Part shown: in pieces, positions 25,384 to 52,213 of the stretch | Layout: each line of letters begins with the position of its first letter | How positions within the stretch are numbered: position 1 is the first letter of the stretch | Source of the DNA: a virus | Virus record (IMG/VR): IMGVR_UViG_3300034355_001150 | Span: 25,767 to 89,766 of that record | DNA length: 64,000 nt | Reading direction: 5' to 3' (one strand) | Translations under genes and position numbers: made by a program | The notes under the pieces: model-generated | What the model saw: only the letters and a program-made list of their open reading frames with translations | The model's database searches: none | Told to the model about the DNA's origin: nothing

Positions 25384-26096
25384 TGTTTTTGCAAAAAATG
25401 GCCGCTAATCCTAAAAGGGTGGCGGTCACTGTAAATCCACAAACCATATCCGTAACTACAACCACTGGATCACCTGTGGGTTCCGGATATGCAATGTTTT
25501 TTCCGGGCAACAACGGATTGAACGAATGCGTATTCTTAAATGGCACTAATGTACCATTGGCTCAAAATGGATTTACATTTGGAACAGGCAATTTTACTAT
25601 GGAGTGTTGGTTTAACCCAACAAGACTTAATATCGGCAGTTTTGGTTACCTCATGGAGATACCCGGCGGCGGTCCTACGCTCTTTTTGCAAGCATCTGAT
25701 TCCAAATTGTGTATGGGCCAAGCTGGCGTAGGTTGGATTTATACGGGATCAGTACCCAGTATAAACACTTGGTATAACTTTTGTGTATGCAGAGCGAGCG
25801 GCACTCTGAGAACATTCTTAAATGGCACCATTGTTCAAAGTATTTCAGCGAGTAATGTATTCAGTCAAGGAGCATCATCTCCAAACGCATTCATTGGTGG
25901 CGGATTTCCGGGAGGAAGTAGTCCCGCGTGTGGGTTTACTGGTTTCATCTGTGAGGCAAGAATCAGCAACATTGCGAGATATACTGCAAATTACACACCA
26001 CAAACGACACCTTTTGTTAATGATACAAATACTCTTTTGTTGGTGCATGGCGATAATACCAACGGATCATTGGCAATATCAGATGATAATACATAA
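25383..26096 (+). CDS. LamG-like lectin protein coupled to the giant fibre gene
   Basis: TAATG overlap. FGTGNFTMECWF, GFICEARISNIARYTANYTP and TLLLVHGD motifs. Confidence 0.8.
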   Translation: MFLQKMAANPKRVAVTVNPQTISVTTTTGSPVGSGYAMFFPGNNGLNECVFLNGTNVPLAQNGFTFGTGNFTMECWFNPTRLNIGSFGYLMEIPGGGPTLFLQASDSKLCMGQAGVGWIYTGSVPSINTWYNFCVCRASGTLRTFLNGTIVQSISASNVFSQGASSPNAFIGGGFPGGSSPACGFTGFICEARISNIARYTANYTPQTTPFVNDTNTLLLVHGDNTNGSLAISDDNT

Positions 26097-35746: not shown

Positions 35747-37378
<1,632 letters not shown>

Positions 37379-39302: not shown

Positions 39303-39833
39303 TCAGAACCAAACACGATGCTTTTCGGCTACCCATTCTTCTCCTTGAAATGATTCAATCTTCCATTCTACATCAATTGGAATACTGACTATGGTCAGAG
39401 TAGCCATCGGACCAGATGCATCTTCGGCCAGGTTTCTTACGATATTCACCAATATTCTATCATCTCTTGCCAATCTGGTATCCCAATACCGATCATTATT
39501 TACTTCAGTGTATTTTCCATACTTATTAGTGGCGTGTCTATCTTCCCTATCCACTAAAGTATACTGTGTGCCCAATGCAGTCAAGTATTCTATCTGAGCC
39601 CTATGTGATAAGCCAAATTTACCATAAGGCTCAGAATTGATTACTATATCGCGTTTGCCCTTTAAGCAAGAAAAAAACTCATCGTACTGAGTGTCTCTGA
39701 TGTTTTCCGGTGAAATCAAGCGTATAAATTGAATACACTTGTTACATATCATTACTCTATCACCGCTAATAGTAGTGCTAAATGCCCCGAAAACATCAGT
39801 TGAGGAGCAAATAACACATCTACTTGTTCTCAT
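39303..39833 (-). CDS. Protein with N-terminal C4 zinc finger fused to a conserved phage domain
   Basis: CxxC...ICxxC, then IVIN..YG.FGLS...RDD.ILV..V...EWVAEKHRVW. Confidence 0.65.
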   Translation of the reverse strand: MRTSRCVICSSTDVFGAFSTTISGDRVMICNKCIQFIRLISPENIRDTQYDEFFSCLKGKRDIVINSEPYGKFGLSHRAQIEYLTALGTQYTLVDREDRHATNKYGKYTEVNNDRYWDTRLARDDRILVNIVRNLAEDASGPMATLTIVSIPIDVEWKIESFQGEEWVAEKHRVWF

Positions 39834-40276
39834 CAGTCGGCAAACTCACACAGAAGAACGTTTTCTTCTACAATATCGTAATTGAAGTAATCGGTTCGTT
39901 GAATCCTATCTACCTTAAATCCACCAGAAATCTTAATATACTCTTCTTCAATGTGCCATCTATCTTTGTCTTGAAGACCACCATTTTTTAACCATTCATT
40001 CCTGATAATATCACGCTCTATTTCGATGTAGCTATCATCAAATGTAAAATGATAACCAATCAGATTATGCAATTCACAGCCCAATCCCTCTGACATACTG
40101 CATGTTACGTATGTATTGAATTCACTTCTTGTTGGACAGGAACGACTATCTCTGTATGCAATTGCGTGTTTATAAAACTCTGACACTGTCCAACCTCTTG
40201 TTTCTGCACCAGTGTTTTCAAACACACTCCAAAAGACTTCTACAAACTTATTTTCAGGTGATTCAATTCTGTACAT
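39833..40276 (-). CDS. Hypothetical protein
   Basis: GAGGA RBS and 1-nt overlap with the downstream gene. Confidence 0.65.
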   Translation of the reverse strand: MYRIESPENKFVEVFWSVFENTGAETRGWTVSEFYKHAIAYRDSRSCPTRSEFNTYVTCSMSEGLGCELHNLIGYHFTFDDSYIEIERDIIRNEWLKNGGLQDKDRWHIEEEYIKISGGFKVDRIQRTDYFNYDIVEENVLLCEFAD

Positions 40277-40325
40277 ATTATCCTCTTGTTGATATCTCTT
40301 GGTTAAATTAGGGTTAGTCCGACGA

Positions 40326-40607
40326 TTATATCAATCTTGCCACTCCTATTAGTTTTCCGTTCTCCCAATCAAATGTGAATTTAACATTATTTTCCTCATC
40401 CTTTCTTGGTGGTCTAAACCGACAAAACTCTTTCTCTAATACGATAACACCAGATACCTCAATGTTTTTTCGCTTGATTCTATATTCAACATCATTGTCC
40501 CACACGGGCGTTAAACAATCAACCCAACCATCTTCCCATTTAGCTTGAATTTCAGCGCCATTTGCCCATGCAATAATCAGATCGCGATGCTTATGTGGTT
40601 TTGACAT
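40326..40607 (-). CDS. Hypothetical phage protein
   Basis: KPHKH.DLI.AWANGAEIQ...W..C..P.W....EYRIK. Coupled to the ligase stop. Confidence 0.7.
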   Translation of the reverse strand: MSKPHKHRDLIIAWANGAEIQAKWEDGWVDCLTPVWDNDVEYRIKRKNIEVSGVIVLEKEFCRFRPPRKDEENNVKFTFDWENGKLIGVARLI

Positions 40608-41968
40608 TACACTTTTTCTCCTTCAGTAAAGCCACGGAATCGTTCAAATCTTGGGAATCTCAAGCTATAAGTACCATCTTGATTTTTTGTAATCGTATCC
40701 GCTTGAATCTCAATCACTCTACCAAGAACAATATCACGATCTTCCCAAAAACTTTCACGCTGTACATCAGTAAATCCGCTACCAACATTGACTCGTATAA
40801 TGCGACCATTATCCTCGCCTTCGCAAATCAATGCACCCAGCTTCCCTTCATTTTTGCCAGTGCCTTCCTCATAACCGATTACTGATAGATCAAATGTTTC
40901 TACTGGCTTATATTTCAACCAAGATGTGGATCGTTTGCACTTATACGGTGCATCCAAATCTTTAATCATAATGCCCTCAAATTTATCACTGATAGCTTTA
41001 TTGGCAAAATCCCACATCTGATCAACACCTTCATCTGTATCCAGATCAACAATCAGATTGTCTACCAATTGAATGCAATCACATTCAAGAATTTCTTTTG
41101 CCTTGAATAAAGTTTCGGTTCTCTTACTTTGCGCAATAGGGCATTCACCATCCTTAAAATCACTACTGGGAACAACATCAAACACATGGTAAATGGTATC
41201 ATCGGTGTTGATATCAGTCTTGCGACGAGCTTGCTTCATCAACATCTGGAATGATTGACCAATCACTTCGCCATCAATAACAAACGATGATCCAAAAATA
41301 GGCGCAAGTTCATCGTATCGCTTCTGAATTTCTTCTGCAATATGCGGAAAATTATCAAATGGTTTTCCATTGCGGCTCATTAAATTTACAGTAGCACCAG
41401 TGACGATAGCCAACACCCTCACACCGTCTAGCTTCAGCTCGATTTGCTTTTTACCAAGCATTTTTTTCTGATTATCTTTTGAATCAGATGCAAGTTGGCA
41501 AGAGAATACAGGAATTTCCCATTGAGTATTTTTCAATACTTTATTAAGTGTTTTTTCAGAAATGCCTACTCGCAAATCCTTGGTGAGAATTCTGCGGCAA
41601 CCGTTATTCCAATTATCAGAATCAAATTGCTTGCTTAGTTTGGCAATCATATCACGAGCAAGATTTCCAGTAACGCTTCTGGTTCTTAGTTCTTCGCATA
41701 ATGCCCAAAATTCTGGCCATGGATTTTCTTTATCAGTTAACGCAACCGTAGTTGGAACTTGCTTAATATTGAATACAAAAAATGGATTGTATGTCAGATA
41801 GCAATTGTATAAAAATGCATCTGCGTCTTCGGAACCAAGATTGGCAAACATCAATGCTTGCTCAAGGATTTGTTCCTTCTCATTTCTGCTATTTGTAGAC
41901 TCTAGCCTACTGATCCATTTTCCAGACACATTCAATCCATTGAATTTAGTATTATTGACTTCTAACAT
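40607..41968 (-). CDS. lig: ATP-dependent DNA ligase
   Basis: Motif I KLDGVR, VIDGEV, FDVV, EGIMIK, KRSTSWLKYK, VGSGF and LRFPRF. Confidence 0.95.
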   Translation of the reverse strand: MLEVNNTKFNGLNVSGKWISRLESTNSRNEKEQILEQALMFANLGSEDADAFLYNCYLTYNPFFVFNIKQVPTTVALTDKENPWPEFWALCEELRTRSVTGNLARDMIAKLSKQFDSDNWNNGCRRILTKDLRVGISEKTLNKVLKNTQWEIPVFSCQLASDSKDNQKKMLGKKQIELKLDGVRVLAIVTGATVNLMSRNGKPFDNFPHIAEEIQKRYDELAPIFGSSFVIDGEVIGQSFQMLMKQARRKTDINTDDTIYHVFDVVPSSDFKDGECPIAQSKRTETLFKAKEILECDCIQLVDNLIVDLDTDEGVDQMWDFANKAISDKFEGIMIKDLDAPYKCKRSTSWLKYKPVETFDLSVIGYEEGTGKNEGKLGALICEGEDNGRIIRVNVGSGFTDVQRESFWEDRDIVLGRVIEIQADTITKNQDGTYSLRFPRFERFRGFTEGEKV

Positions 41969-42030
41969 ACTATTTACTCACTTTGGGTTAAAAAAGACAT
42001 CTTAGCAGAATGTCGGTGAAATGTCAAGCG

Positions 42031-42279
42031 TTAAAGGTAATCTGTGCAATGTCTATGCACTCTGTCGGCTGATCCCCATAATTCTGTGGGAACCTCAAAG
42101 TAAATACACCTTACCAAATCTTCTAAAGATTTTATATCGTCTGGACTTGCTTCCAGCACAGCATTGAAGAGATCATTCTGAAGAACAAACTTCAAAAATG
42201 AGCTATCAATCTTGCCGTGTTCAATGTATTGCTGAAGCCGAATCTTTAGATCGGCGTGAATGTTGTATTTTTCAAACAT
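42031..42279 (-). CDS. Hypothetical protein
   Basis: Strong AAGGAGG RBS. YIEHG...FL..VL.NDL..A motif. Confidence 0.7.
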   Translation of the reverse strand: MFEKYNIHADLKIRLQQYIEHGKIDSSFLKFVLQNDLFNAVLEASPDDIKSLEDLVRCIYFEVPTELWGSADRVHRHCTDYL

Positions 42280-42551
42280 TGTCTCCTCCTTATGATTAAT
42301 GAGAAGATAGTATATACTGTTGTCCTCAAAAAATCAACTGTTTTCTTTTCGTTTCTTTGTTGGCTTGTCGTCGGTGGTTAAAGCCATCGCCAAAATCATA
42401 ATTGTGATCGTTATAAAAAAGTCCATTGTGTCTCCTTTGTTTCGTTGTTAATACGTCTCTGTAGTATTTAGGGATATGATAACACAAAAAAGCAACAATT
42501 CAAGCATTTTGAGCGCAATTTATTATTTACTCTGAGTGAATGATGGCACGT

Positions 42552-42749
42552 TTAGTTCATCATTGGGTCTTCAATACCGACGAATACCATTGGATTGGTT
42601 AATGCCAATTGCTCAATGAATTTCTCCATCATACGATTTTCTAACCATGCCATTTCTACTTCCGTTAGAATATCTGGGTCCATTCCTTCGGATAGAACCT
42701 GATTCACCATTATCATTCTCTTCTTGGAAGGTTTCGGTAAGGTCATCAT
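42552..42749 (-). CDS. Hypothetical protein
   Basis: GAGG RBS, follows the 42754..42912 ORF. Confidence 0.55.
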   Translation of the reverse strand: MMTLPKPSKKRMIMVNQVLSEGMDPDILTEVEMAWLENRMMEKFIEQLALTNPMVFVGIEDPMMN

Positions 42750-42753
42750 TTGA

Positions 42754-42912
42754 TTACACCTCTACCAATTCATTGGGATCAAACGCAGCCAAGTTATCTT
42801 CTTCGTCGTCTTCCCAAACAGCATTTCCCTCATCGTACTTAACGAATCTGAGTTTTGATTCAGGGTCAACGAACGTAGCTCCAAAATACAGTTTTCCGAA
42901 TTCAATAGTCAT
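42754..42912 (-). CDS. 52-aa acidic protein missing from the ORF track (MTIEFGKLYFGATFVDP...)
   Basis: GGAG RBS, directly downstream of the promoter at 42938-42965. Confidence 0.6.
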   Translation of the reverse strand: MTIEFGKLYFGATFVDPESKLRFVKYDEGNAVWEDDEEDNLAAFDPNELVEV

Positions 42913-42937
42913 TTTTAGTCTCCATTAAATTAGTGTG

Positions 42938-42965
42938 ATTATACAGTAAAATTTTAGATTGTCAA
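42938..42965 (-). promoter_or_regulatory. Early promoter TTGACA-16-TATAAT overlapping the MTase stop
   Basis: TTGACAATCTAAAATTTTACTGTATAAT. Confidence 0.8.
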
Positions 42966-43873
42966 CAACTGCTCTCAATTAGCTCAATTTCTTCTTTGGT
43001 CAGATTAAAATGATTGTACAATTGCTGATTGGACCAGCTTCTTGTCAAGTCAAGTTTAGGAAAAACATTCAAGTTTTTCGTTTCATTATATTGAGTATGG
43101 CGATATACGCGAGAAAAAAATTTATACAGATTGCTATTAAACACTGTTTTTGCGTGTTCAACACTTTCTTCTTCTTTCAAGAGCATTGTTTGGCACCATC
43201 CTACACCATAATGTCCATCATCAATGATTACTTTTGTGGGTCCATTGTAGGGAATAACCACTTTCTTTTTTGATTTTAACGGTGATTCAATTTCACTCCA
43301 TCTTACAGGAATTCCAGAATCGTTTAAGTAATCCTTGCTAGAATTAACATGATGTATGTTTGCGTGTATGGCGTTCGCCGTTTTATTATCGGTATGATAG
43401 CCTGTTCCTTTATATTGATGATTTATGCCAGCTAAGAAAAAATTACAACGTGGTTCGGACGATTCTGTTAGCTTTTTTATAATAGTCAGCCCTTTGTTTG
43501 TAATTAGCTTGGTTTTCCTTAAATCAACTACATGAACACCATCATTGCAATTTATCTCAGATTTACCTTGATATTGATTTTTTTGTACAATAGTGTAGCC
43601 AAACGTAGAGGAAACATTAAAGTAATTTTTAATTCTATCCGATATGTCAGCGTATATCAGATTGTATTCTGAAAACACTCTCTCAATGATTTTTCCATTA
43701 TCGCTCGGAGAACACCAACCAGTTGGCGTAATTAAGCAAGTATATCCATTTTCTGCTGTGATGTCAACCGATAGCGTTAAAAACTCTTTCCACAGAGATT
43801 TGTTAGTTTGTCTTCCGTTTTTGGCGAGTTGTTTGAATGGTGGATTACCTACCACTATGTCAAATTTCATCAA
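42962..43873 (-). CDS. N6-adenine DNA methyltransferase catalytic/TRD half (Eco57I-like), cassette 5
   Basis: Starts at MKFDIVVGNPPF (motif IV). No SAM-binding motif I. Confidence 0.8.
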   Translation of the reverse strand: MMKFDIVVGNPPFKQLAKNGRQTNKSLWKEFLTLSVDITAENGYTCLITPTGWCSPSDNGKIIERVFSEYNLIYADISDRIKNYFNVSSTFGYTIVQKNQYQGKSEINCNDGVHVVDLRKTKLITNKGLTIIKKLTESSEPRCNFFLAGINHQYKGTGYHTDNKTANAIHANIHHVNSSKDYLNDSGIPVRWSEIESPLKSKKKVVIPYNGPTKVIIDDGHYGVGWCQTMLLKEEESVEHAKTVFNSNLYKFFSRVYRHTQYNETKNLNVFPKLDLTRSWSNQQLYNHFNLTKEEIELIESSC

Positions 43874-43882
43874 CCAATATTC

Positions 43883-44980
43883 TCAATAGTAATTTGGCAT
43901 AGCGTTTATTACGTCGCGCTCTTCTTGTGTGAATCCATAGAAGTCTTGTATTGAATCTTCAGTCCAAATTCTATCCAATGGCGGTAGTGGTACATTTTCA
44001 AAATATCGCTTAATAAACAAATGCTGTGATACCTTGTATATCACCAAGCCATATCTAGCCACCTTTGTTTTCAAATAAGATTTTAAGCTATCTTTTTCTT
44101 CGTCTGTGTTAATGACCAAACATTTAGCGCCATCTTTCAAGACATCAATTTTACTGTTCCTGTAGAAAAAAGTAAAATAATCATCAGTATTAAAATGTCC
44201 ACATATTTGAGGTAACGCAATAAATGGTCGGTTGGGTCGATCTGAAGATATATCATTCAAACACTTTTCTTTCGTTAATTCTTTGTATCTATTTACGAGA
44301 CTCAAAACAACGTCACTTGGTTCCCAAAACCCCGTAGGCAAATCAGAAATGTCTTTTATATAATATTTATTATCTGATTCTTTGTAATGCAATTTAATGT
44401 TATCTTGGTTGTTCTTTATAGCATATGTTACGCATAGATAGCAACTGAATAGGCCCTTTCCAAATAACTCGTTGCCATCCATAAATGTTAATTGTTTAAG
44501 TCTTCCCTTTAGCTCTCTTCTGACTTCTTTTTCTATAGAAGAATTGCCTCGATATGTCCACCCCGATGGGTGAATCAAGCAAACAATATCAGCTATCTGC
44601 AAACATTTCAATAAAAAATCTAAGTGGGTATTTTTTAAATAAGGTGGATTGCCCACCACTATGTCAAATTTCATATCTGTTTCCCATGTCAAAAAGTCGG
44701 CTCTGATTACGTTCTTGAATCGGCCATGCAACATCATGCGATTAGTTGCCCATATTGCCTTATCAAGAACGTATATGCGATTATTTATGTAGTCATTGTC
44801 AAAGCCTAATTTTCGCATTCTTCTTACAATCACTTTTGACTCGGTTCCATAGCCACAGGCAACATTCAGTATCTTAATATCTGGATTTAAAAATACCTCG
44901 TCGGGTATTTGGTCAATGATTTCTGTCCACAATTCAATACTATCTGGATCACCTAAAAAGCAATTGCCGCCGTATCCCAT
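43883..44980 (-). CDS. N6-adenine DNA methyltransferase (gamma-type order), cassette 4
   Basis: Motif-I-like ILNVACGYGTE followed by FDIVVGNPPY and a unique C-terminal region. Confidence 0.85.
   Translation of the reverse strand: MGYGGNCFLGDPDSIELWTEIIDQIPDEVFLNPDIKILNVACGYGTESKVIVRRMRKLGFDNDYINNRIYVLDKAIWATNRMMLHGRFKNVIRADFLTWETDMKFDIVVGNPPYLKNTHLDFLLKCLQIADIVCLIHPSGWTYRGNSSIEKEVRRELKGRLKQLTFMDGNELFGKGLFSCYLCVTYAIKNNQDNIKLHYKESDNKYYIKDISDLPTGFWEPSDVVLSLVNRYKELTKEKCLNDISSDRPNRPFIALPQICGHFNTDDYFTFFYRNSKIDVLKDGAKCLVINTDEEKDSLKSYLKTKVARYGLVIYKVSQHLFIKRYFENVPLPPLDRIWTEDSIQDFYGFTQEERDVINAMPNYY
44640..44980. repeat. Direct repeat shared with 48240..48580 (exactly 3600 bp apart)
   Basis: 44640-44820 appears identical to 48240-48420 and the remainder is near-identical. 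Shorter copies lie at 45851-45897, 47438-47477 and ~43839-43870. Confidence 0.9.
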
Positions 44981-45048
44981 TAAAATTCCTCCATAGATTA
45001 ATTGTTGTTAATAACTGTTCTCATTTGTTTTAGGTCATGTCAAGTCTT

Positions 45049-45918
45049 TTACGAGGTTTCTTTTTTTCTAACAAGTACATCTAAGATGTATTCTTGCTCC
45101 GTGGCGGAGATATTGAACAATGAGAATAATTCTGAATCATTCATATTAATTCCGGAAATTTTTGGCATCCTTGCTAAATTTCTATAGCTCACTTGCGCTG
45201 CATTGGCAAAAGAATATACACAAAATCTACCAAGAAGTGATTTGGATAAATACCAAGAGTTAAGGTGAGCTTCCGTCTCCGAATCCATCTTTAAAAACAT
45301 ACCTCTGCCATTCTCAATTATTCCTTCGTTTGTATGATTCACTCTTGAAATAACTGACTTTTTTCCACCCTTTGGTTTTGTGTGACAAAAACGAATATAT
45401 GCAGAATCAACAAAAACATAATCTTTTGCAATCTCGTTTCGTGATAGAAACAATTTTTCTCCCGAGGAGTTAAACACTTTGTCTATTATGGATGCCCCCA
45501 CAATGTTTGTGGCCTGTATGGGTAACGCCTTTTGCATATCCCAATCAATGTGCGATTCCGAGAAGATGACTTTTGTTGTTTTTGTAACCAATCCCAAAGA
45601 CTTTGAACCAATAAAACCAGCAATGTTTGTTCCAATTCCCGGAAAACTTTCATTCAGGTTGGCAAATACTGTTGTTAATGAAAATAAATTATGTATTATT
45701 TTAGCACTTTTAGACCCCGGATCTAAAAATCTATTGGGAACAACGAATGCAATCAATCCGTCTTCTGAAAGAACTTTTCCAGACTTTTCTATAAATTTTG
45801 TATAATACGAAGAATCACCGTCTATTTTATATGGCGGATTTCCAACCACAATGTCAAATTTCATATCTGTTTCCCATGTCAAAAAGTCGGCTCTGATGAC
45901 ATTATTGAACCCACCCAA
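45049..45918 (-). CDS. 5'-truncated methyltransferase cassette 3
   Basis: NPPY and TRD region are intact. Upstream codons LDRTIWATNRIRILGGF (from ~45957) are a remnant of the N-terminal half seen in cassettes 1 and 4. Confidence 0.75.
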   Translation of the reverse strand: MGGFNNVIRADFLTWETDMKFDIVVGNPPYKIDGDSSYYTKFIEKSGKVLSEDGLIAFVVPNRFLDPGSKSAKIIHNLFSLTTVFANLNESFPGIGTNIAGFIGSKSLGLVTKTTKVIFSESHIDWDMQKALPIQATNIVGASIIDKVFNSSGEKLFLSRNEIAKDYVFVDSAYIRFCHTKPKGGKKSVISRVNHTNEGIIENGRGMFLKMDSETEAHLNSWYLSKSLLGRFCVYSFANAAQVSYRNLARMPKISGINMNDSELFSLFNISATEQEYILDVLVRKKETS

Positions 45919-45969
45919 AATACGTATCCGATTGGTAGCCCAAATGGTCCTATCTAATTAGTGTGATTA

Positions 45970-46581
45970 TTAATCTTCTAGGTTAAATAGATTTATAAAT
46001 TCCTGTGGGGTTAGATATTCTTTTGCCCTGATAACAACGTCGTTGCCATATTTGGCAAACAACGCCTTCCCGTCATATTTTTCGTATATCTGAGGCCATA
46101 GACCTTTATTATCGTTAACCGAACGAGTGGGAAAAGCGACGCGAATCTTTAATTTACTAGAAACCGTAACGTTACCTGCATTTCTCTTAATCGACTTGAG
46201 TTTGATATCCTTCAAAATTTTTGAAGCCTCTTCTTTGTCCAATCCACTGGGTGCATTGTATAGATCGCTGGGGAAATCAACCCAGCGTCCGTTCTCATGA
46301 ATCCAATAATCAACATTGATAGGATCAATTTTAAATAGCTCTGTTACATATGCCGCCTCTCTGGCATCTGCATAATATCCGCCGTGCCAAGAAGTTCTTT
46401 CTTGTGCATATAATTGTGAACGAATAGAGGTATCTGATGGATTGGCACATGCCGCAATAAATGGTTTGGATTCATCCAATGTCCAAGCAGTGGATAATGC
46501 GGCTCCGGTGTAACCCGACCTATTTGATTTTCTGGTTGACAGATGAATTTTTATGCCGGTGGAAAGAGTAATAGTGGTCAT
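45970..46581 (-). CDS. Protein with degenerate AP2-like DNA-binding domain (start MTTITL)
   Basis: SNRSGYTG....W...FIA...WHGGYYADAREAAY pattern, GAGGAG RBS, and its own early promoter. Confidence 0.55.
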   Translation of the reverse strand: MTTITLSTGIKIHLSTRKSNRSGYTGAALSTAWTLDESKPFIAACANPSDTSIRSQLYAQERTSWHGGYYADAREAAYVTELFKIDPINVDYWIHENGRWVDFPSDLYNAPSGLDKEEASKILKDIKLKSIKRNAGNVTVSSKLKIRVAFPTRSVNDNKGLWPQIYEKYDGKALFAKYGNDVVIRAKEYLTPQEFINLFNLED

Positions 46582-46635
46582 TGTTTGTCTCCTCGTTAAA
46601 ATTAAGACTTGAACGAACTTCAAATCATTGGGAGT

Positions 46636-46663
46636 ATTATACAGTAAAATTTTTACTTGTCAA
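46636..46663 (-). promoter_or_regulatory. Early promoter TTGACA-16-TATAAT overlapping the MTase stop
   Basis: TTGACAAGTAAAAATTTTACTGTATAAT, nearly identical to 42938-42965. Confidence 0.8.
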
Positions 46664-47477
46664 CCTTTTTTACTCTACTCTCTATGAAATTTATCTCATC
46701 ATCGGACAGCAAGAAATGCTTATAAACATCGTTATTGGTCCACATTCTATCAGAATCTAACTTTGGTAACAAATTATTATTTTTTACCACTGGAGTAAAT
46801 CCAGCTGTTTTAAGATGGTTGTCGGCATAAAAGCGATATAAATTACTGTTGGTATATGATAAAATATTATTGCCCTCCTTTATGTTCGTTATAGGAAGAA
46901 TTTTATTAAATTTACAAGTGGGCGAATCGGTTATGAATTGCGAGGAGTAACTTGCGCTGAAAGGATAGACTATTTTGAGGCCGACATTATTTGGCTTTAA
47001 ATCTGTGTTCGTTTTGTTTTTGCCGCTATAATAAATCTCACAATCCCCTATGTTTAAATTCTCTTTTGTTATTTGCGGGTTCTCGTATATCAAAGATAAA
47101 AATTCCGCGCTATCTAACATTTTAGACACAATAGAGTCAATCATTGGATCTCTTAGTATTGGAAGCATAACCTTTTTGTGCTTTGAACTTCTCGTTACTA
47201 CCCAATGACATGTATTCACTCCAACTGAAAACCATTGTTTTTCTTTGTGTACAGAAGCATGAGTTAAAGTTAGTTGATTATTCAATCTATCCTTAAACCA
47301 CTTTCCCATACCGACCGTGTAATCAAAAATAGATGCAGGTGTTACGAATGCAACAAACCCGATGTCGGTAACTAGGGTGAGTGTTTTTTTCGCGAATTTA
47401 TGCCATAATTTATTATTTTTAGCTTTATTGTTGTTGTCCTGATAAGGTGGATTGCCCACCACTATGTCAAATTTCAT
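46653..47477 (-). CDS. N6-adenine methyltransferase catalytic/TRD half, cassette 2
   Basis: Starts at MKFDIVVGNPPYQ with an ATGA overlap. No motif I. Confidence 0.8.
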   Translation of the reverse strand: MKFDIVVGNPPYQDNNNKAKNNKLWHKFAKKTLTLVTDIGFVAFVTPASIFDYTVGMGKWFKDRLNNQLTLTHASVHKEKQWFSVGVNTCHWVVTRSSKHKKVMLPILRDPMIDSIVSKMLDSAEFLSLIYENPQITKENLNIGDCEIYYSGKNKTNTDLKPNNVGLKIVYPFSASYSSQFITDSPTCKFNKILPITNIKEGNNILSYTNSNLYRFYADNHLKTAGFTPVVKNNNLLPKLDSDRMWTNNDVYKHFLLSDDEINFIESRVKKVDK

Positions 47478-48580
47478 TGACCAATTTTCTCAATTAGCTC
47501 AATTTCTTTGTTAGTCAGATTAAAATGATTATACAATTCTACGTCGGACCACGCCATGTTGGTGTCAACCATCGGTAATGATTGCAAAATTCCGGTACTC
47601 GATTGCCCTGCCTCTCCGCCAAGTATTTTAAACACGTAGCAAAACAACTTGCTATTGAATATTGTTTTATAATTTGCAAGATTTTTTGTATCAGCTATCA
47701 CCATAGTTTGTGCAGAATGATTAGTGTCCGACGAACGACCGATAAAAAGTTTATCGTATTTTTTGAATCGTCCTCCGTTTATCTTAACCACCAAATCAGA
47801 TTCCTTCGACTTATCGCATTCTGTAAATTTCCATTTCTTGGAGGAATATGTTTTGTTCAATATACTTAGATTATCTGGAGTAACATCAAACGGAATAGGA
47901 CAGGAAGCATCTACATCGCAGTAAGTAGAATCATTATTATTTAAGATAAGACATTGTCCAACATAATTTTTGGACATAACAAATGCACTTATGCGAATAC
48001 CAACATTGAAATGATGCGAAACATCCGGGTATATTCCGATGAATTTAAAATTATTTTTATAAATAAATGTTATCTTGTTTGTTTCCTTGCCAAAATTTGA
48101 TATAGAAAAAATTGAAGTGGGAACTATCATTGCTATAGTTGTATTTTCGCTTGACAATTCAACGGCTTTTGTCAAAAAAGCCCACCAAAAGCCTCCTTGT
48201 TTATTGTTCTTGCATTTTATAGCTGCGGTCGATGCCTGATAAGGTGGATTGCCCACCACTATGTCAAATTTCATATCTGTTTCCCATGTCAAAAAGTCGG
48301 CTCTGATTACGTTCTTGAATCGGCCATGCAACATCATGCGATTAGTTGCCCATATTGCCTTATCAAGAACGTATATGCGATTATTTATGTAGTCATTGTC
48401 AAAGCCTAATTTTCGCATTCGGCGAACGATCACTTTTGACTCGGTTCCATAGCCACAGGCAACATTCAGTATCTTAATATCTGGATTTAGAAATACCTCA
48501 TCGGGTATTTTGTCAATGATTTCTGTCCACAATTCCTCGCTATCGGGATCACCCAAGAAGCAATTACCACCATATCCCAT
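47474..48580 (-). CDS. N6-adenine DNA methyltransferase (gamma-type order), cassette 1
   Basis: First ~113 aa almost identical to cassette 4, then a different sequence after NPPY. Confidence 0.85.
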   Translation of the reverse strand: MGYGGNCFLGDPDSEELWTEIIDKIPDEVFLNPDIKILNVACGYGTESKVIVRRMRKLGFDNDYINNRIYVLDKAIWATNRMMLHGRFKNVIRADFLTWETDMKFDIVVGNPPYQASTAAIKCKNNKQGGFWWAFLTKAVELSSENTTIAMIVPTSIFSISNFGKETNKITFIYKNNFKFIGIYPDVSHHFNVGIRISAFVMSKNYVGQCLILNNNDSTYCDVDASCPIPFDVTPDNLSILNKTYSSKKWKFTECDKSKESDLVVKINGGRFKKYDKLFIGRSSDTNHSAQTMVIADTKNLANYKTIFNSKLFCYVFKILGGEAGQSSTGILQSLPMVDTNMAWSDVELYNHFNLTNKEIELIEKIGQ

Positions 48581-49935
48581 TACACATCTCCAAAACAGAA
48601 ATCATTGATTAAATTGTTGTATTTTTTAGTATTCTGGACAACCACGTCTAATATCGGCTCATTCAGAATTCCCTTATCTAAGATCATCAAAGCTATCTCA
48701 ATATCAATTCCGACAAAATCATAAAATTCTTCGGATGATTGCGCAGAGTAAATAATGTTCTCCAAACACTCTTTGTACGTTTCTCCGCTTGGATATAGAT
48801 AATGAACATTTCTCGCAGACCGATTTATCGTCTTGATGGCCTCATTTATTATCGTCTCAATATCTTTATCACTTTTGCGATTTTTCGGCCTTTTGCCATC
48901 TGTTTCAGTTACATAATTTTTAACAGCATCAATTGCATTTTTGCCTTGATGTCCTGGTCCAGCAATACGATTCGCGTTTTCAAGATGTTCAACGATGTCA
49001 CGTGCCAAATCAATATTTACAGTAACATCGGCCACCCGAAGTAGATTTTCATTATCATTCAGAATGGTGAACATTTCAGATTCAGTTACCTCAACCGCCG
49101 TTCCATACTTCACTCTAAAACAATCTATGCTTGATAAAACAAAGCGAGTCGCGGTTGGAAAATCCATCCCTTCGCTTTTATGAACCTGCATGATCTCTTC
49201 TACTAATAGCTTTTCTATATTTTCAGAACGATTTGGGTCAAAGCTAAGATCAACAATGTGTCCATACTCTTTTGATTCACCAGAGAATGTGTTACCCGGT
49301 GTCAAACAACGACTTACTTTTTGAATAGTAGTATCTACCGATCCTCTATCATAAGCAATAACTGATGCTTGAATTTCAGATATACTGTATGATCGTGAAC
49401 CCATCTGATTTGATATTATAATCAAACCATCCTTGCCAGCGATTTTTGCCTCGTTTATTTCCCGAATCGTTTCTGATTCTGCTTCTTTGTTGCTGGTAAA
49501 ATCACCGTTTAATATTTTGATATGATAATTAGGGATAGCCCTGATAGCGATATCTTTAATCTGCCGCATTTCCTTGTTGTTGGCACTCACCAACAACATA
49601 AAGCAATCAACAGATTCGCCGGTCAAATTGCTCAAGTTCAATTCTTGTCGTAGAGGTTCTTCTCCGATAAAACTCTTGAATAATTTTGTGATAAACGATT
49701 TATTTCCATTGGGTTTTCCCCATATTTTTGCCCAAGAAGGCTGAACTTCTGGCTCAAGCGATTCTATATCATGCTTGAGTGTATCTACTTCCAACATGAA
49801 GAATTTTCGTTTTATAATACTTTCTTCGGATTGCTCTAATTGACTATAAGCGGTATAAATAACCCCATCAACTTTTGGCGCACCTTTGGCCAATCTCTGG
49901 ATGTTGGTTCCAGAGGCATATATTTTTATTAGCAT
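48580..49935 (-). CDS. SF2 (restriction-type) helicase C-terminal part
   Basis: Begins with motif-III-like YASGT, has MGSRSYSI and motif-VI-like IQKVSRCLTP. TAATG-coupled to MTase cassette 1. Confidence 0.7.
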   Translation of the reverse strand: MLIKIYASGTNIQRLAKGAPKVDGVIYTAYSQLEQSEESIIKRKFFMLEVDTLKHDIESLEPEVQPSWAKIWGKPNGNKSFITKLFKSFIGEEPLRQELNLSNLTGESVDCFMLLVSANNKEMRQIKDIAIRAIPNYHIKILNGDFTSNKEAESETIREINEAKIAGKDGLIIISNQMGSRSYSISEIQASVIAYDRGSVDTTIQKVSRCLTPGNTFSGESKEYGHIVDLSFDPNRSENIEKLLVEEIMQVHKSEGMDFPTATRFVLSSIDCFRVKYGTAVEVTESEMFTILNDNENLLRVADVTVNIDLARDIVEHLENANRIAGPGHQGKNAIDAVKNYVTETDGKRPKNRKSDKDIETIINEAIKTINRSARNVHYLYPSGETYKECLENIIYSAQSSEEFYDFVGIDIEIALMILDKGILNEPILDVVVQNTKKYNNLINDFCFGDV

Positions 49936-49959
49936 AGTTCATTTTGGTGTTTATTGATT

Positions 49960-50784
49960 TCATGAAAACAAAAAATCTACTTTTTTAATTTGATTGTCGG
50001 TATGAGTGCCGAAATCTCCCTCGTCGGCGAAAACAAATATATCGTCATTTTTCAAATCTGATATCCATTGATGTTTTTCGCACCATTCATCATAATCTCC
50101 GTGAAGTGAGATAGGAACAACTACTCGTTGACCATTAGATAAAGCATTTTCAACTTTGAATGAGGCATCGTCGTCATTGCAATCAATCAATGCAATGTCC
50201 AAAAAATCATCATAGTCCGATAATGCATTTATGAATGATGAATGCACACTGAGCCAATACGCTGGCAACAGCATAATTCTATTGTTGTATCTTTCGCAAA
50301 CAGCATTAAATAGCATCAGTGACCATATTGTTTTGCCAAATCTCGGGCATAAATTTGCGGCAATCGTTGGCGAATGATCGGTTTTATCTATTATTTCTAA
50401 TGCGTCATTTAATGCTTTTTGTTGTAAGTCACGAAGTACAACCTTGTTTCTTACTCGTTTTCCCTCCATGGATTCAACCAAGTCATCAATGTAACGATGA
50501 GCGTCATCAATAGAGGTACCGGGAATTTTAAACCATTCGGTTCCTGCACCATCTTTGTGGTGCAATCCTTTCCTGGTCAATACTTTATGAACTTCGTAAT
50601 CACGCTTGATATTCTGAAGATTATTCCATGAGCCTACTCGGATTTTTGCTTCATACTCTGATGCACCTCCCTGTTCTGCTATTCTAACGTCAACATCACG
50701 AATACTATCGCCCACTTTGGCCAAAATAAACCCATCATACTTGCATAATGCCGAAGGATAAGTGTACGCATATAAATTGATCAT
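49960..50784 (-). CDS. GIY-YIG/T5orf172-like nuclease fused to SF2 helicase N-terminal part (start MINLYAY)
   Basis: LYAY...KVGDS.RDV..RI.EQ...D..VH..L...GTEWF nuclease domain, LRDLQ Q-motif, Walker A CPRFGKT and Walker B FADEGD. Confidence 0.75.
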   Translation of the reverse strand: MINLYAYTYPSALCKYDGFILAKVGDSIRDVDVRIAEQGGASEYEAKIRVGSWNNLQNIKRDYEVHKVLTRKGLHHKDGAGTEWFKIPGTSIDDAHRYIDDLVESMEGKRVRNKVVLRDLQQKALNDALEIIDKTDHSPTIAANLCPRFGKTIWSLMLFNAVCERYNNRIMLLPAYWLSVHSSFINALSDYDDFLDIALIDCNDDDASFKVENALSNGQRVVVPISLHGDYDEWCEKHQWISDLKNDDIFVFADEGDFGTHTDNQIKKVDFLFS

Positions 50785-50789
50785 GCTGC

Positions 50790-51266
50790 TCACTCTCCCC
50801 AATTATCAAATAGCGTGTGTTTATGTAATTCATCATCGTTAAAGTTTGTTCCATTGAACTCATATCCATAGGTTAAACCATCATGGCATACTATGTTCTT
50901 CTCAACAATGTGAGAATATTCTGATTTACCACATAATAAACGCTCTCTGCACAGAGTAACATTATCTTGCATAATATCAACGCCAAAAACTGTACTCAGG
51001 GCTTGTTTAAACCCATGACCGTTCTCTAGCTTACGAATAAGAACTTCGCTTAAAAATTGCCCATCGCCGCAACTTGGATCAAGAAATGTTTTAGTTGGAT
51101 CCGTAAATGAATCTTTTGGTAATAGGTCCAATATCTCTTGCACCAATGGCGTGGGTGTGAAGCACTCCCCTGTGCTTTTTATGCGGGACATTTCTCGAAC
51201 AGTCCCGGACATGAATTCTCTATCGCGCATATGCGATATAGCTGATTGTAATTCTTCTTTCGTCAT
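50790..51266 (-). CDS. Stand-alone SAM-binding half of an adenine methyltransferase (158 aa)
   Basis: Motif X GECFTP, motif I FLDPSCGDGQFL, motif II FGVDI and motif III NIVCHDGL. Ends before any NPPY. Confidence 0.85.
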   Translation of the reverse strand: MTKEELQSAISHMRDREFMSGTVREMSRIKSTGECFTPTPLVQEILDLLPKDSFTDPTKTFLDPSCGDGQFLSEVLIRKLENGHGFKQALSTVFGVDIMQDNVTLCRERLLCGKSEYSHIVEKNIVCHDGLTYGYEFNGTNFNDDELHKHTLFDNWGE

Positions 51267-51331
51267 AATTCTCCTATTATAATATGGTTAAGATTACCTC
51301 AATTTGCTAATTACTTAAAGTCATTTTGCGA

Positions 51332-51358
51332 TAAAGGGATCATGACATGATCCCTTTA
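51332..51358. terminator. Hairpin, probable terminator upstream of the methyltransferase locus
   Basis: TAAAGGGATCATG-A-CATGATCCCTTTA palindrome. Confidence 0.6.
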
Positions 51359-51365
51359 GTTTTTG

Positions 51366-51734
51366 CTATGTTGAATCAATTTTTGGCTTTCTTGGCAATT
51401 TAAGTCCATGCTCAACCATGTGCATAAACGATTCAACGTCCGTTACATGATAATCTATATCGTCAATTGTCACATTGGGTCTGTCGCTCGTTACATCAAA
51501 CTCTGGCATTTCATGCAAAAACCAATCAATCCAATCTCTCAGTTCTTTTCCTAGAAATAAATCCAATACAAGTTGAGTTTGAAAATAGTATGTATTGGTA
51601 TATAAATTTTCTGATATAACTTCCTCTAATGAGGGATCCACAGAACGCAAGTCGCGTCTATACTTGTCCAAGTTCTCATTGTCTGATTTTAACCGAGTTG
51701 CGATTTCTCTAAAATCTTCAAGATATACATTCAT
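51366..51734 (-). CDS. Hypothetical protein
   Basis: Packed ORF. No family recognised. Confidence 0.6.
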   Translation of the reverse strand: MNVYLEDFREIATRLKSDNENLDKYRRDLRSVDPSLEEVISENLYTNTYYFQTQLVLDLFLGKELRDWIDWFLHEMPEFDVTSDRPNVTIDDIDYHVTDVESFMHMVEHGLKLPRKPKIDST

Positions 51735-51737
51735 GGT

Positions 51738-52154
51738 TTATTGACAAACCTTTACATAGCGAGGATTGCCAGCTTGATCATACACGGTTTCGCCATGGCA
51801 ATTGTTGGCCGCAGATGGTTGAGAATATCCATTAGCAGGATGACCCGCAGATTGTGGATATTGCTGTTGTGGATATCCTCCTTGTGGCTGTTGGCCGGTA
51901 GGTTGACCATTCTGGTTAACGTAGATTACTTGAGGTGGTGCTTGTTGAACTTGTACTGGGTCAGGTTGACTCATCTTATTAACAATGCCGCTAACAAGAG
52001 CAACACCAGCCTGCGCCACGCCCATGCCCAGTGGACTTGAGTACCAATTCGATGATCCAAATTGCTGATTCATCGTATATTGTTGGTTATATGGACCATA
52101 GGCATTTGCATTACATGAGACAAGAATCGCACCGATAAAAAGTAACTTTTTCAT
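51738..52154 (-). CDS. Exported Gln/Pro/Gly-rich protein (start MKKLLF)
   Basis: GAGG RBS, signal peptide ending ANA, and an early promoter at 52186-52213. Confidence 0.65.
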   Translation of the reverse strand: MKKLLFIGAILVSCNANAYGPYNQQYTMNQQFGSSNWYSSPLGMGVAQAGVALVSGIVNKMSQPDPVQVQQAPPQVIYVNQNGQPTGQQPQGGYPQQQYPQSAGHPANGYSQPSAANNCHGETVYDQAGNPRYVKVCQ

Positions 52155-52185
52155 TGTAATCACCTCTTTGTTTATAGTGATGTGT

Positions 52186-52213
52186 ATTATACACACATTT
52201 TTTCAGTTGTCAA
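52186..52213 (-). promoter_or_regulatory. Early promoter TTGACA-16-TATAAT
   Basis: TTGACAACTGAAAAAATGTGTGTATAAT. Confidence 0.75.

Follow-up and report, generated by a model that had tools for sequence, protein, structure and literature searches.

Which enzyme is encoded where a phage carries a row of adenine methylase genes, some of which lack the motifs that bind S-adenosyl methionine (SAM)? The question is posed by a 64,000-nucleotide stretch of viral DNA (hereafter the window; positions 25,767 to 89,766 of IMG/VR record IMGVR_UViG_3300034355_001150), in which five modules of the Eco57I family of N6-adenine methylases, here called A to E, lie co-oriented on the minus strand at 42962-48580. 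In our reading the array encodes a split methylase of a combinatorial kind, whose parts are reshuffled when homologous recombination acts on a repeat around catalytic motif IV; we give this reading a probability of about 0.55. A bolder form of it, held tentatively and at slightly worse than even odds, is that one SAM-binding half-protein may serve in trans at least four free catalytic/recognition halves, that these may move between free and fused forms and between phages via motif-IV recombination, and that the same unrecognised enzyme may be present in P-SSM2, S-CAM7 and many aquatic and T4-like phages.

Anatomy of the methylase modules

The initial annotation of this DNA, made from the letters alone, had described five co-oriented open reading frames (ORFs) that share MKFDIVVGNPP(Y/F). 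All five were found where it placed them, and all score above the curated cut-off of PF07669 (Eco57I), at 36-51 bits against 25.3 (E values 7.5e-9 to 2.1e-13). The count of five cassettes holds for the window; the whole record holds more. The window is the last 64 kb of a record of 89,766 bases (CheckV completeness 27%), and these 89.8 kb contain at least three further modules, which brings the set to at least eight copies; the PF07669 cut-off is exceeded at seven places. A second array outside the window, some 70 kb away (record 1-1809), carries module F and then module G with a junction of its own, and yet another full-length copy is represented by its start alone, the first 39 nucleotides (nt) of the record, where the contig end truncates it. 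The contig probably broke within the methylase repeat. A further back half, H, stands behind the same constant N-terminal region (N') in another IMG/VR contig (L008/L011), whose N' agrees with that of F at 99.2% over 133 nt; the remaining 10.7 kb of that contig are unmatched in this record. The array as first described is confirmed, and it is larger than was then apparent. Its parts are listed below in window coordinates unless stated, with protein lengths in amino acids (aa).

47474..48580, minus strand: module A, 368 aa, with fused N' (residues 1-102) followed by a catalytic/recognition half; GGAG Shine-Dalgarno sequence
48239..48580, minus strand: constant N' region of A up to NPPY, repeated in D 3600 bp away
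47488..47551, minus strand: conserved tail of A, W..LYNHFNLT..EIELIE, compared with E at 42973-43036 and B at 46679-46742
46653..47477, minus strand: module B, 274 aa, a free half from the M of MKFD, with an ATGA overlap with the stop of A
45049..45957, minus strand: module C including its N' remnant; the ORF is 45049-45918, 289 aa from TTG
43883..44980, minus strand: module D, 365 aa, with fused N' followed by a catalytic/recognition half; GGAGG Shine-Dalgarno sequence
42962..43873, minus strand: module E, 303 aa, a free half; its MKFD ATG at 43870 is 12 nt past the stop of D
Record 949-1809, outside the window: module F, full-length and N'-fused
Record 176-955, outside the window: module G, truncated, with a TGATG overlap with the stop of F

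Along the minus strand the gene order is A, B, orf217, C, D, E. Each module is closed by its own stop codon, and no ORF holds several target-recognition domains (TRDs). Catalytic motif IV reads NPPY in A, B, C and D and NPPF in E, F and G. In A, D and F, motifs X and I-III stand N-terminal to motif IV in the same chain, which is the gamma order; their N' carries ILNVACGYGTE, VLDK and RADFL, and each has a GGAG-type Shine-Dalgarno sequence. B and E have none of the SAM-binding motifs X and I-III, and in C no more than a II-III remnant survives, behind a stop. Since B and E lack these motifs in the chain, the free halves are not complete gamma-class enzymes. The nearest solved sequence relative of the modules is M.TaqI, for which a 23-residue segment aligns with IRADFLTWETDMKFDIVVGNPPY.

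The modules begin alike and then part. A common, near-identical protein head, MKFDIVVGNPPY/F, is followed by unrelated catalytic and recognition halves. At the DNA level, as had been claimed, the head is nearly the same throughout: the 32-nt sequence ATGAAATTTGAC...CCACC, which encodes MKFDIVVGNPP, occurs in four copies with at most three mismatches and gave 0 matches in 100 shuffles, while C carries a fifth copy that has diverged further (61-65% over the 49-nt repeat family D3). The 5' repeat that had been noticed in the first and fourth cassettes was likewise recovered. Its copies in A and D are exactly 3600 bp apart from start to start and alike over 300 nt at 96% in the repeat search, or over 344 nt at 94.8% in a second comparison. 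Across the 114 codons of N' plus head, A and D differ at 18 of 342 nt (13 synonymous and 2 non-synonymous codons); every difference falls within codons 3-54, and the two copies show none over codons 55-114, which lead up to NPPY. Of the 342 positions, 23 separate F from A and 31 separate F from D, and N' identity among the three copies is 91-95% in DNA.

Beyond NPPY/F the DNA is unrelated and the break in identity is sharp. The significant protein matches past this point amount to about 20-25% identity over some 250 aa, or to at most 45% over at most 93 aa, the latter mostly in the C-terminal tail W..LY..F.LT.EE...IE. The initial annotation had placed the variable part in the TRD alone. Because the sequences diverge directly after NPPY/F, the variable unit is instead everything from motif V to the end, that is, motifs V-VIII together with the TRD.

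At the far end of the cassettes the resemblance returns. The tails are indeed similar, A and E being 84% and A and B 63% identical in DNA (repeat family D4). B and E start at the MKFD methionine behind junctions that had rightly been called similar: A|B, with its ATGA overlap, and D|E both carry ATTGAGAA(A/T)ATTGGT..ATG, which at A|B is the end of the coding tail of A and at D|E a remnant of an A-like tail. G starts inside N', at MLHGRF. The partial 5' remnant attributed to the third cassette is present in C as a diverged N' from motif II on (LDRTIWATNR...WETD), closed by an in-frame TAA; three stops lie between C and orf217 in the frame of C, and its candidate starts are the TTG at 45918 and the MKFD ATG at 45864. 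All four truncated ORFs (B, C, E and G) are intact, at 237-302 aa from MKFD. Two of the three NPPY-starting ORFs of the window are stop-start coupled or lie within 12 nt of the upstream stop, and F|G also overlaps. Two candidate routes of expression were dropped: a frameshift or read-through fusion of A with B (one SAM-binding half for two catalytic halves, and no sequence signal), and ribosomal hopping between the identical heads (distances of 800-3600 nt, no supporting signal).

A stand-alone SAM-binding half and its relatives

The motifs that B and E lack are encoded by a separate gene.

50790..51266, minus strand: N-half P0001, 158 aa, first gene of the operon, AGGAG Shine-Dalgarno sequence

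P0001 contains motif X (GECFTP), motif I (LDPSCGDGQFL), motif II (FGVDI) and motif III (CHDGL), and ends 25 residues past motif III with no motif IV. It covers only positions 22-108 of the 311 in the Pfam N6_Mtase profile and aligns with residues 9-105 of M.BseCI. P0001 and the free halves B and E hence have complementary, non-overlapping motif sets on two genes, X and I-III on the one and IV onward on the other. With N' it is distantly paralogous (26% identity over 105 aa, E 4e-7). Among 14 homologues from metagenome loci the mean identity is 61%, and FTPT, CGDGQFL, GVD and DGL are invariant. A search of the whole library with P0001 returned 2993 cluster representatives at E ≤ 1e-3 and 846 at E ≤ 1e-10; of the best 150 matches, 140 are no longer than 260 aa. 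The Atlas clusters of P0001 are viral, and its Atlas model has a predicted template-modelling score (pTM) of 0.79. From this conservation we take P0001 to be a conserved protein in its own right.

The proposed mechanism can now be set out. Each module would consist of a catalytic half, from motif IV (NPPY/F) to VIII, and a different target-recognition part. A, D, F, the eighth copy at the record end and probably H have N' fused in front and could each work as one chain. The free halves would be B, C, E and G, whose Rossmann fold is most likely completed in trans by the N-half of the operon, so that one cofactor half is shared by several specificity halves. The near-identical DNA of head and N', together with the partly conserved tail, would offer homology for ordinary homologous recombination, which could add, delete or swap back halves and convert free into fused forms, and the reverse, in the phage population. 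The likely use would be to shield the phage's DNA from host restriction by methylating it at many motifs. Trans binding, catalytic activity, distinct specificities and this biological role are what we infer; what is observed directly is the anatomy, the homologies, the free pairs and fusions found elsewhere, and rearrangements at the level of strains.

Relatives of the locus were collected with N' as the query, which gave 31 metagenome loci at 31-88% identity over the best aligned segment; a P0001 homologue is present in 23 of them. By motif pattern, an N-half ORF was counted in 16 loci and was complete in 11, and NPP[YFW] occurred in none of the 16. The usual module comprises a nuclease-helicase, an N'-fused methylase of 343-412 aa and an N-half that overlaps the methylase stop. 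Compared with this typical module, the present phage has an expanded methylase set and places its N-half at the front. Several relatives carry free halves of their own: in L041/L042 an N-half comes after two tandem MKFD-starting halves that have no full-length gene upstream of them; L037 also contains a tandem pair of halves; and in L022 an extra half lies upstream of the full gene.

Free pairs also occur in cultured phages. In P-SSM2 (39800-40760; L048), PSSM2_036, a protein of 193 aa that begins MKFTLAIGNPPY..., overlaps the N-half gene 037, and in S-CAM7 (49969-51325; L045) a 317-aa catalytic half overlaps a 136-aa N-half (CC030809_00075/76). S-SKS1 (L047) and Klebsiella phage PKO111 (L050) each have a motif-IV-bearing protein overlapped by an N-half. 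All of these genes are annotated as encoding hypothetical proteins; the pairs look like unrecognised two-gene adenine methylases. In P-SSM2 and S-CAM7 the free pair is the only form, and there is no N' with which it might recombine.

Elsewhere the same halves are joined. In p65301 of Aeromonas phage 65 (phrog_11371) they are fused in the order IV-VIII, TRD, X, I-III, and the metagenome proteins P0063 and P0142 have the same permuted order; P0134 is fused with the N-half first and the catalytic half second. Together with the free pairs, the fusions argue that the two halves make one enzyme, which evolution has separated, permuted and rejoined at the link between motifs III and IV. The back halves of the array are related to these proteins individually. 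F matches the free P-SSM2 protein 036 at 38.6% identity over 171 aa (E 2e-35), and D matches both P0134 and the Aeromonas phage 65 protein. The matches of B comprise two free halves, P0007 and that of S-CAM7, as well as the full-length P0003-P0006, which have quite different N-terminal halves; its relatives include P0007 and P0008, starting with MKFD or MNFT, and in an alignment with 11 homologues B retains every invariant column. Judged by these matches, the back halves are drawn from a pool common to other phages.

Close relatives of the locus as a whole are few. A megablast search of GenBank phages with 42900-48600 found nothing, and tblastn of A found distant cyanophage matches only, at about 32-33% identity over 30-43% of the query. 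Scans of IMG/VR with A, with a degenerate head pattern and with orf451 returned the few relatives L008/L011, L009, L010 and L051.

Rearranged forms and the assembly

The source water is a lake, and 95-96% of the sampled words of the region are present in each of four sequencing runs. All 17 listed runs are DNA. Contigs of the metagenome runs X2, X5, X6 and X8 were compared with the locus at a likeness threshold of 85%; the depth of X8 is very low. In the independent run X2 the sequence is identical, with no mismatch, and the contigs end at every repeat. Because they break there, X2 confirms the unique junctions and leaves the block order across the 340-bp repeat unconfirmed. The array might be a chimera of single methylase genes from several strains, collapsed or concatenated at the N' repeat; the breaks in X2 allow for this, as does the fact that the same samples join several alternative halves to the same head. 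Such an artefact is nevertheless very improbable. X2 contigs run without a mismatch across A|B, across D|E and across the segment from upstream of D to C, and the exact protein of B is found on five contigs, the longest of 115,795 nt. Furthermore, the second array, F-G, has its own junction 70 kb away in the same record, and L037 and L041/L042 show tandem halves independently.

Run X5, a second lake metagenome, contains relatives at about 90-97% identity whose contigs are joined differently. Three joints were counted:

45018 to 47488, shorter side 56 nt: the tail of A directly before the region upstream of D; B, orf217 and C absent
45958 to 48428, shorter side 54 nt: N' runs into the remnant of C; C fused
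44674 back to 42973, with 10 nt between, shorter side 41 nt: the half of D, up to its MKFD ATG, behind a tail-type junction; D free

C is fused in the second contig because N' continues into its remnant, and D is free in the third because its half stands behind an E-like tail-stop-ATG junction. In X2, X5 and X8, contigs with loose ends at 48235-48239 continue from the constant head into different back halves, and one of these is identical to H of L008/L011. Two further X5 joints were not counted, one from 44992 to 48601, which skips 3608 nt and would be a clean deletion at the N' repeat (shorter side only 24 nt), and one from 44625 to 48042 (21 nt). A gap in X6 over 46072-47973 was dropped as a sign of absence, as no contig joins across the stretch.

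We read the X5 joints as strain-level reshuffling at head, N' and tail, and not as proof of switching within a clone. The number and order of cassettes do differ in relatives, as the initial annotation had wished to see examined, at this level only. Its idea of a recombining library survives in part: the joints in X5, X2 and X8 support the motif-IV head and N' as exchange sites, and the notion of silent cassettes awaiting recombination is not supported. Its description of the system as recombinase-free also agrees with what was found, since no recombinase family was detected in the scan, which covered the 12 larger window ORFs of 40607-52196. The shared heads, N' regions and tails all repeat in direct orientation; inverted pairs of 20-30 nt at 70-90% also occur, and they do not flank the cassettes. 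As the repeats are direct, simple exchange deletes or duplicates and does not allow reversible switching.

The joints bear on two other accounts of the truncated genes. Under the first, only the N'-fused genes would be expressed as enzymes and the NPPY-starting ORFs would be stored specificities, activated when recombination at the head fuses them to N' and deletes the intervening DNA. The identity of the heads in DNA and the direct orientation of the 340-bp N' repeat suit this account, as do the X5 contigs in which the half of C is fused, that of D is free and A is joined directly to D, and the free halves lack strong Shine-Dalgarno sites. Storage is unlikely, however, given that the operon itself includes a gene for a free SAM-binding half and that P-SSM2 and S-CAM7 possess only free halves and an N-half, with no N' as a recombination partner. 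Additionally, the free halves start at ATG with stop-start coupling, and direct repeats would make each activation an irreversible deletion, with no within-clone switching seen. On our reading of a split enzyme, the NPPY-starting ORFs are probably not silent: they have ATG starts, stop coupling and intact frames, the operon encodes a SAM half with the missing motifs, the free pair stands alone in the cultured phages P-SSM2 and S-CAM7, and fusions of the halves are known as well.

Under the second account, which we consider less probable still, the truncated ORFs would be non-functional by-products of unequal exchange on their way to being lost, and only A, D and F would matter. The degenerate remnant and the three stops in front of C fit such debris, most relatives hold only one methylase in the module, and one X5 form dispenses with B, orf217 and C. 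Decay would hardly have left four of four truncated ORFs intact over 237-302 codons, nor B with all of its invariant columns. An X5 relative that spans orf217 and B differs by 34 substitutions and no gap, and L037, L041/L042 and the cultured phages independently carry the same kind of free half.

Several points weigh against a shared SAM-binding half. B, C, E and G have no good Shine-Dalgarno sequence, and C has no ATG start before MKFD; C appears the weakest candidate for translation among the four. The N-half lies 2.2 kb upstream of the first free half and is not adjacent to it in this phage. Most relatives have the N-half after a methylase that already carries a fused N', and serving free halves therefore cannot be its sole role; indeed, N' may itself be the odd part, because its motif X is atypical. 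The specificities are putatively distinct, judged solely by the divergence of the back-half sequences. Finally, each rearranged form is a single Logan contig from a mixed community, with a shorter side of 41-56 nt, and these contigs come from related strains rather than from one clone.

Known systems and the neighbouring genes

The closest counterparts are the pairs of P-SSM2 and S-CAM7, which likewise combine a motif-IV-starting protein with a small protein bearing X and I-III, from the same families as here. Theirs is one adjacent, overlapping pair, whereas this phage has one N-half, at least four non-adjacent free halves and at least four N'-fused copies in two arrays. Aeromonas phage 65 p65301, P0063 and P0142 hold the same two halves in one polypeptide, a Rosetta-stone link; they differ in being fused, of single specificity and without an array. 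With M.TaqI and the gamma-class enzymes of the Eco57I family the modules share PF07669 and, in A and D, the gamma motif order. M.TaqI is one chain of one specificity, whereas half of the copies here are without motifs I-III.

Phage methylases that cover several specificities are familiar from Bacillus phages SPR, phi3T and rho11s, whose multispecific C5 enzymes carry several TRDs in one polypeptide. The present set resembles them as a phage complement that would cover several restriction specificities, and is unlike them in that separate ORFs closed by stops take the place of TRDs in one chain. Two-polypeptide C5 methylases also exist in nature, as M.AquI and M.EcoHK31I. Fragments of a split M.SssI are reported to complement each other (PMC3404938). 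All three are DNA methylases assembled from two polypeptides; they differ from the proposed enzyme in being C5 methylases with another split point, one pair and one specificity, and no half shared among many partners.

Recombination of recognition parts has precedents in bacteria. For the Type III mod genes of Helicobacter pylori, Furuta and Kobayashi (2012, PMC3467074) report that homologous recombination in conserved motifs moves TRDs. The likeness lies in a recognition part that moves through conserved methylase-motif DNA; in that case the movement is between full genes at different bacterial loci, whereas here it would concern tandem arrays in a phage, a whole catalytic half and changes between free and fused forms. 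The phase-variable Type I hsdS shufflon of Streptococcus pneumoniae is reported to have an expressed locus and truncated specificity genes with shared repeats (PMC4948785). The truncated genes that share repeats with an expressed locus are the common feature; such shufflons rely on inverted repeats and inversions, while this array has direct repeats, no recombinase in the scanned ORFs and truncated genes with their own starts. The literature searched, with REBASE and article supplements outside the search, contained no adenine methylase of a phage in which the chain is divided after motif III and before motif IV, and no such array, and none is described in the available parts of PMC7824862 and PMC3467074.

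Should the free halves work with the N-half, many methylation specificities would be built modularly from one cofactor module, split inside the Rossmann fold where natural methylase classes are circularly permuted. This would account for the large family of small viral proteins labelled 'N-6 DNA methylase domain' or hypothetical (the 846 representatives mentioned above) and would give a function to paired hypothetical genes of model cyanophages. As hosts change their restriction repertoires, phages could then keep pace through ordinary recombination at a short, conserved coding repeat, and might re-assort a multi-specificity methylome quickly. The halves could also be of use as natural parts for split, programmable adenine methylases.

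The genes and sites around the modules are these:

49960..50802, minus strand: orf280, N-part, nuclease-helicase-like, with a weak T5orf172/MUG113 match and Walker A/B motifs seen by eye
48580..49935, minus strand: orf451, which continues the helicase-like protein as its C-part and whose stop shares TAATG with the start of A
46636..46663, minus strand: promoter-like site, perfect TTGACA-N16-TATAAT, after B and before orf217
45970..46623, minus strand: orf217, 217 aa, unrelated, between B and C
42938..42965, minus strand: second promoter-like site, overlapping the stop of E

L026, L016 and L051 have orf280 and orf451 fused into a single frame of 726-760 aa, whereas several other relatives show the split found here. 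orf451 is 50-66% identical to its counterpart in 13 of 16 matching metagenome loci, and the order nuclease-helicase, methylase, N-half is kept in the nine long metagenome loci that were mapped and in L051. This conserved order invites another view of the role, in which the enzyme mechanism is unchanged and the methylases are the modification arm of a phage-borne, restriction-like module with the nuclease-helicase. The methylases of ACG-2014f and G001, flanked by a helicase and by a nuclease gene of PD-(D/E)XK-like appearance by eye, would agree with it. The family matches of orf280 are both weak, at E 0.019 for MUG113 and E 0.0015 for PADLOC PDC-M15A, the single PADLOC hit; orf451 has no PADLOC match, the nuclease-helicase none in PHROGs, and the fused L026 homologue none in NCBIfam or PDB. 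With the helicase, moreover, split into two ORFs in this phage, we regard a restriction role as improbable and retain protection of the phage's own DNA by the split methylase as the likelier use.

Two observations belong to this neighbourhood. In L044 (ACG-2014f gp052) and L043 (G001 1772-2341) the methylase is separated from the N-half or helicase by a protein of about 190-200 aa, in which a PD-(D/E)XK-like motif, GVDG...VQIK, was noted by eye; the neighbouring methylases have N-terminal halves without a G-x-G motif I. On the marine contig L016 (7702-13552), a Type I-like hsdM and hsdS lie a few kb downstream of the methylase/N-half module.

The transcription units are likely to be N-half, orf280, orf451, A and B in one, and orf217, C, D and E in the other. 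A palindromic, terminator-like hairpin with a 12-bp stem (51332-51358) lies immediately before the N-half gene and probably indicates where the operon begins. The promoter-like sites after B and after E each match TTGACA-N16-TATAAT at 12 of 12 positions and are 90% identical copies (repeat family D6), which suggests that a tail-plus-promoter segment was duplicated along with the cassettes. orf217 sits behind its own perfect promoter-like site, and the X5 variant lacks it together with B and C. It gave no match in Pfam, PHROGs, PADLOC, NCBIfam or PDB and no usable one in the Atlas, where its model is poor (predicted local distance difference test, pLDDT, 0.35).

The same phage also encodes GroEL, ribonucleotide reductase and an ATP-dependent DNA ligase, and is therefore taken to be a large phage; the GroEL homologue lies at window positions 35747-37375 (phrog_5725, E 1.4e-172).

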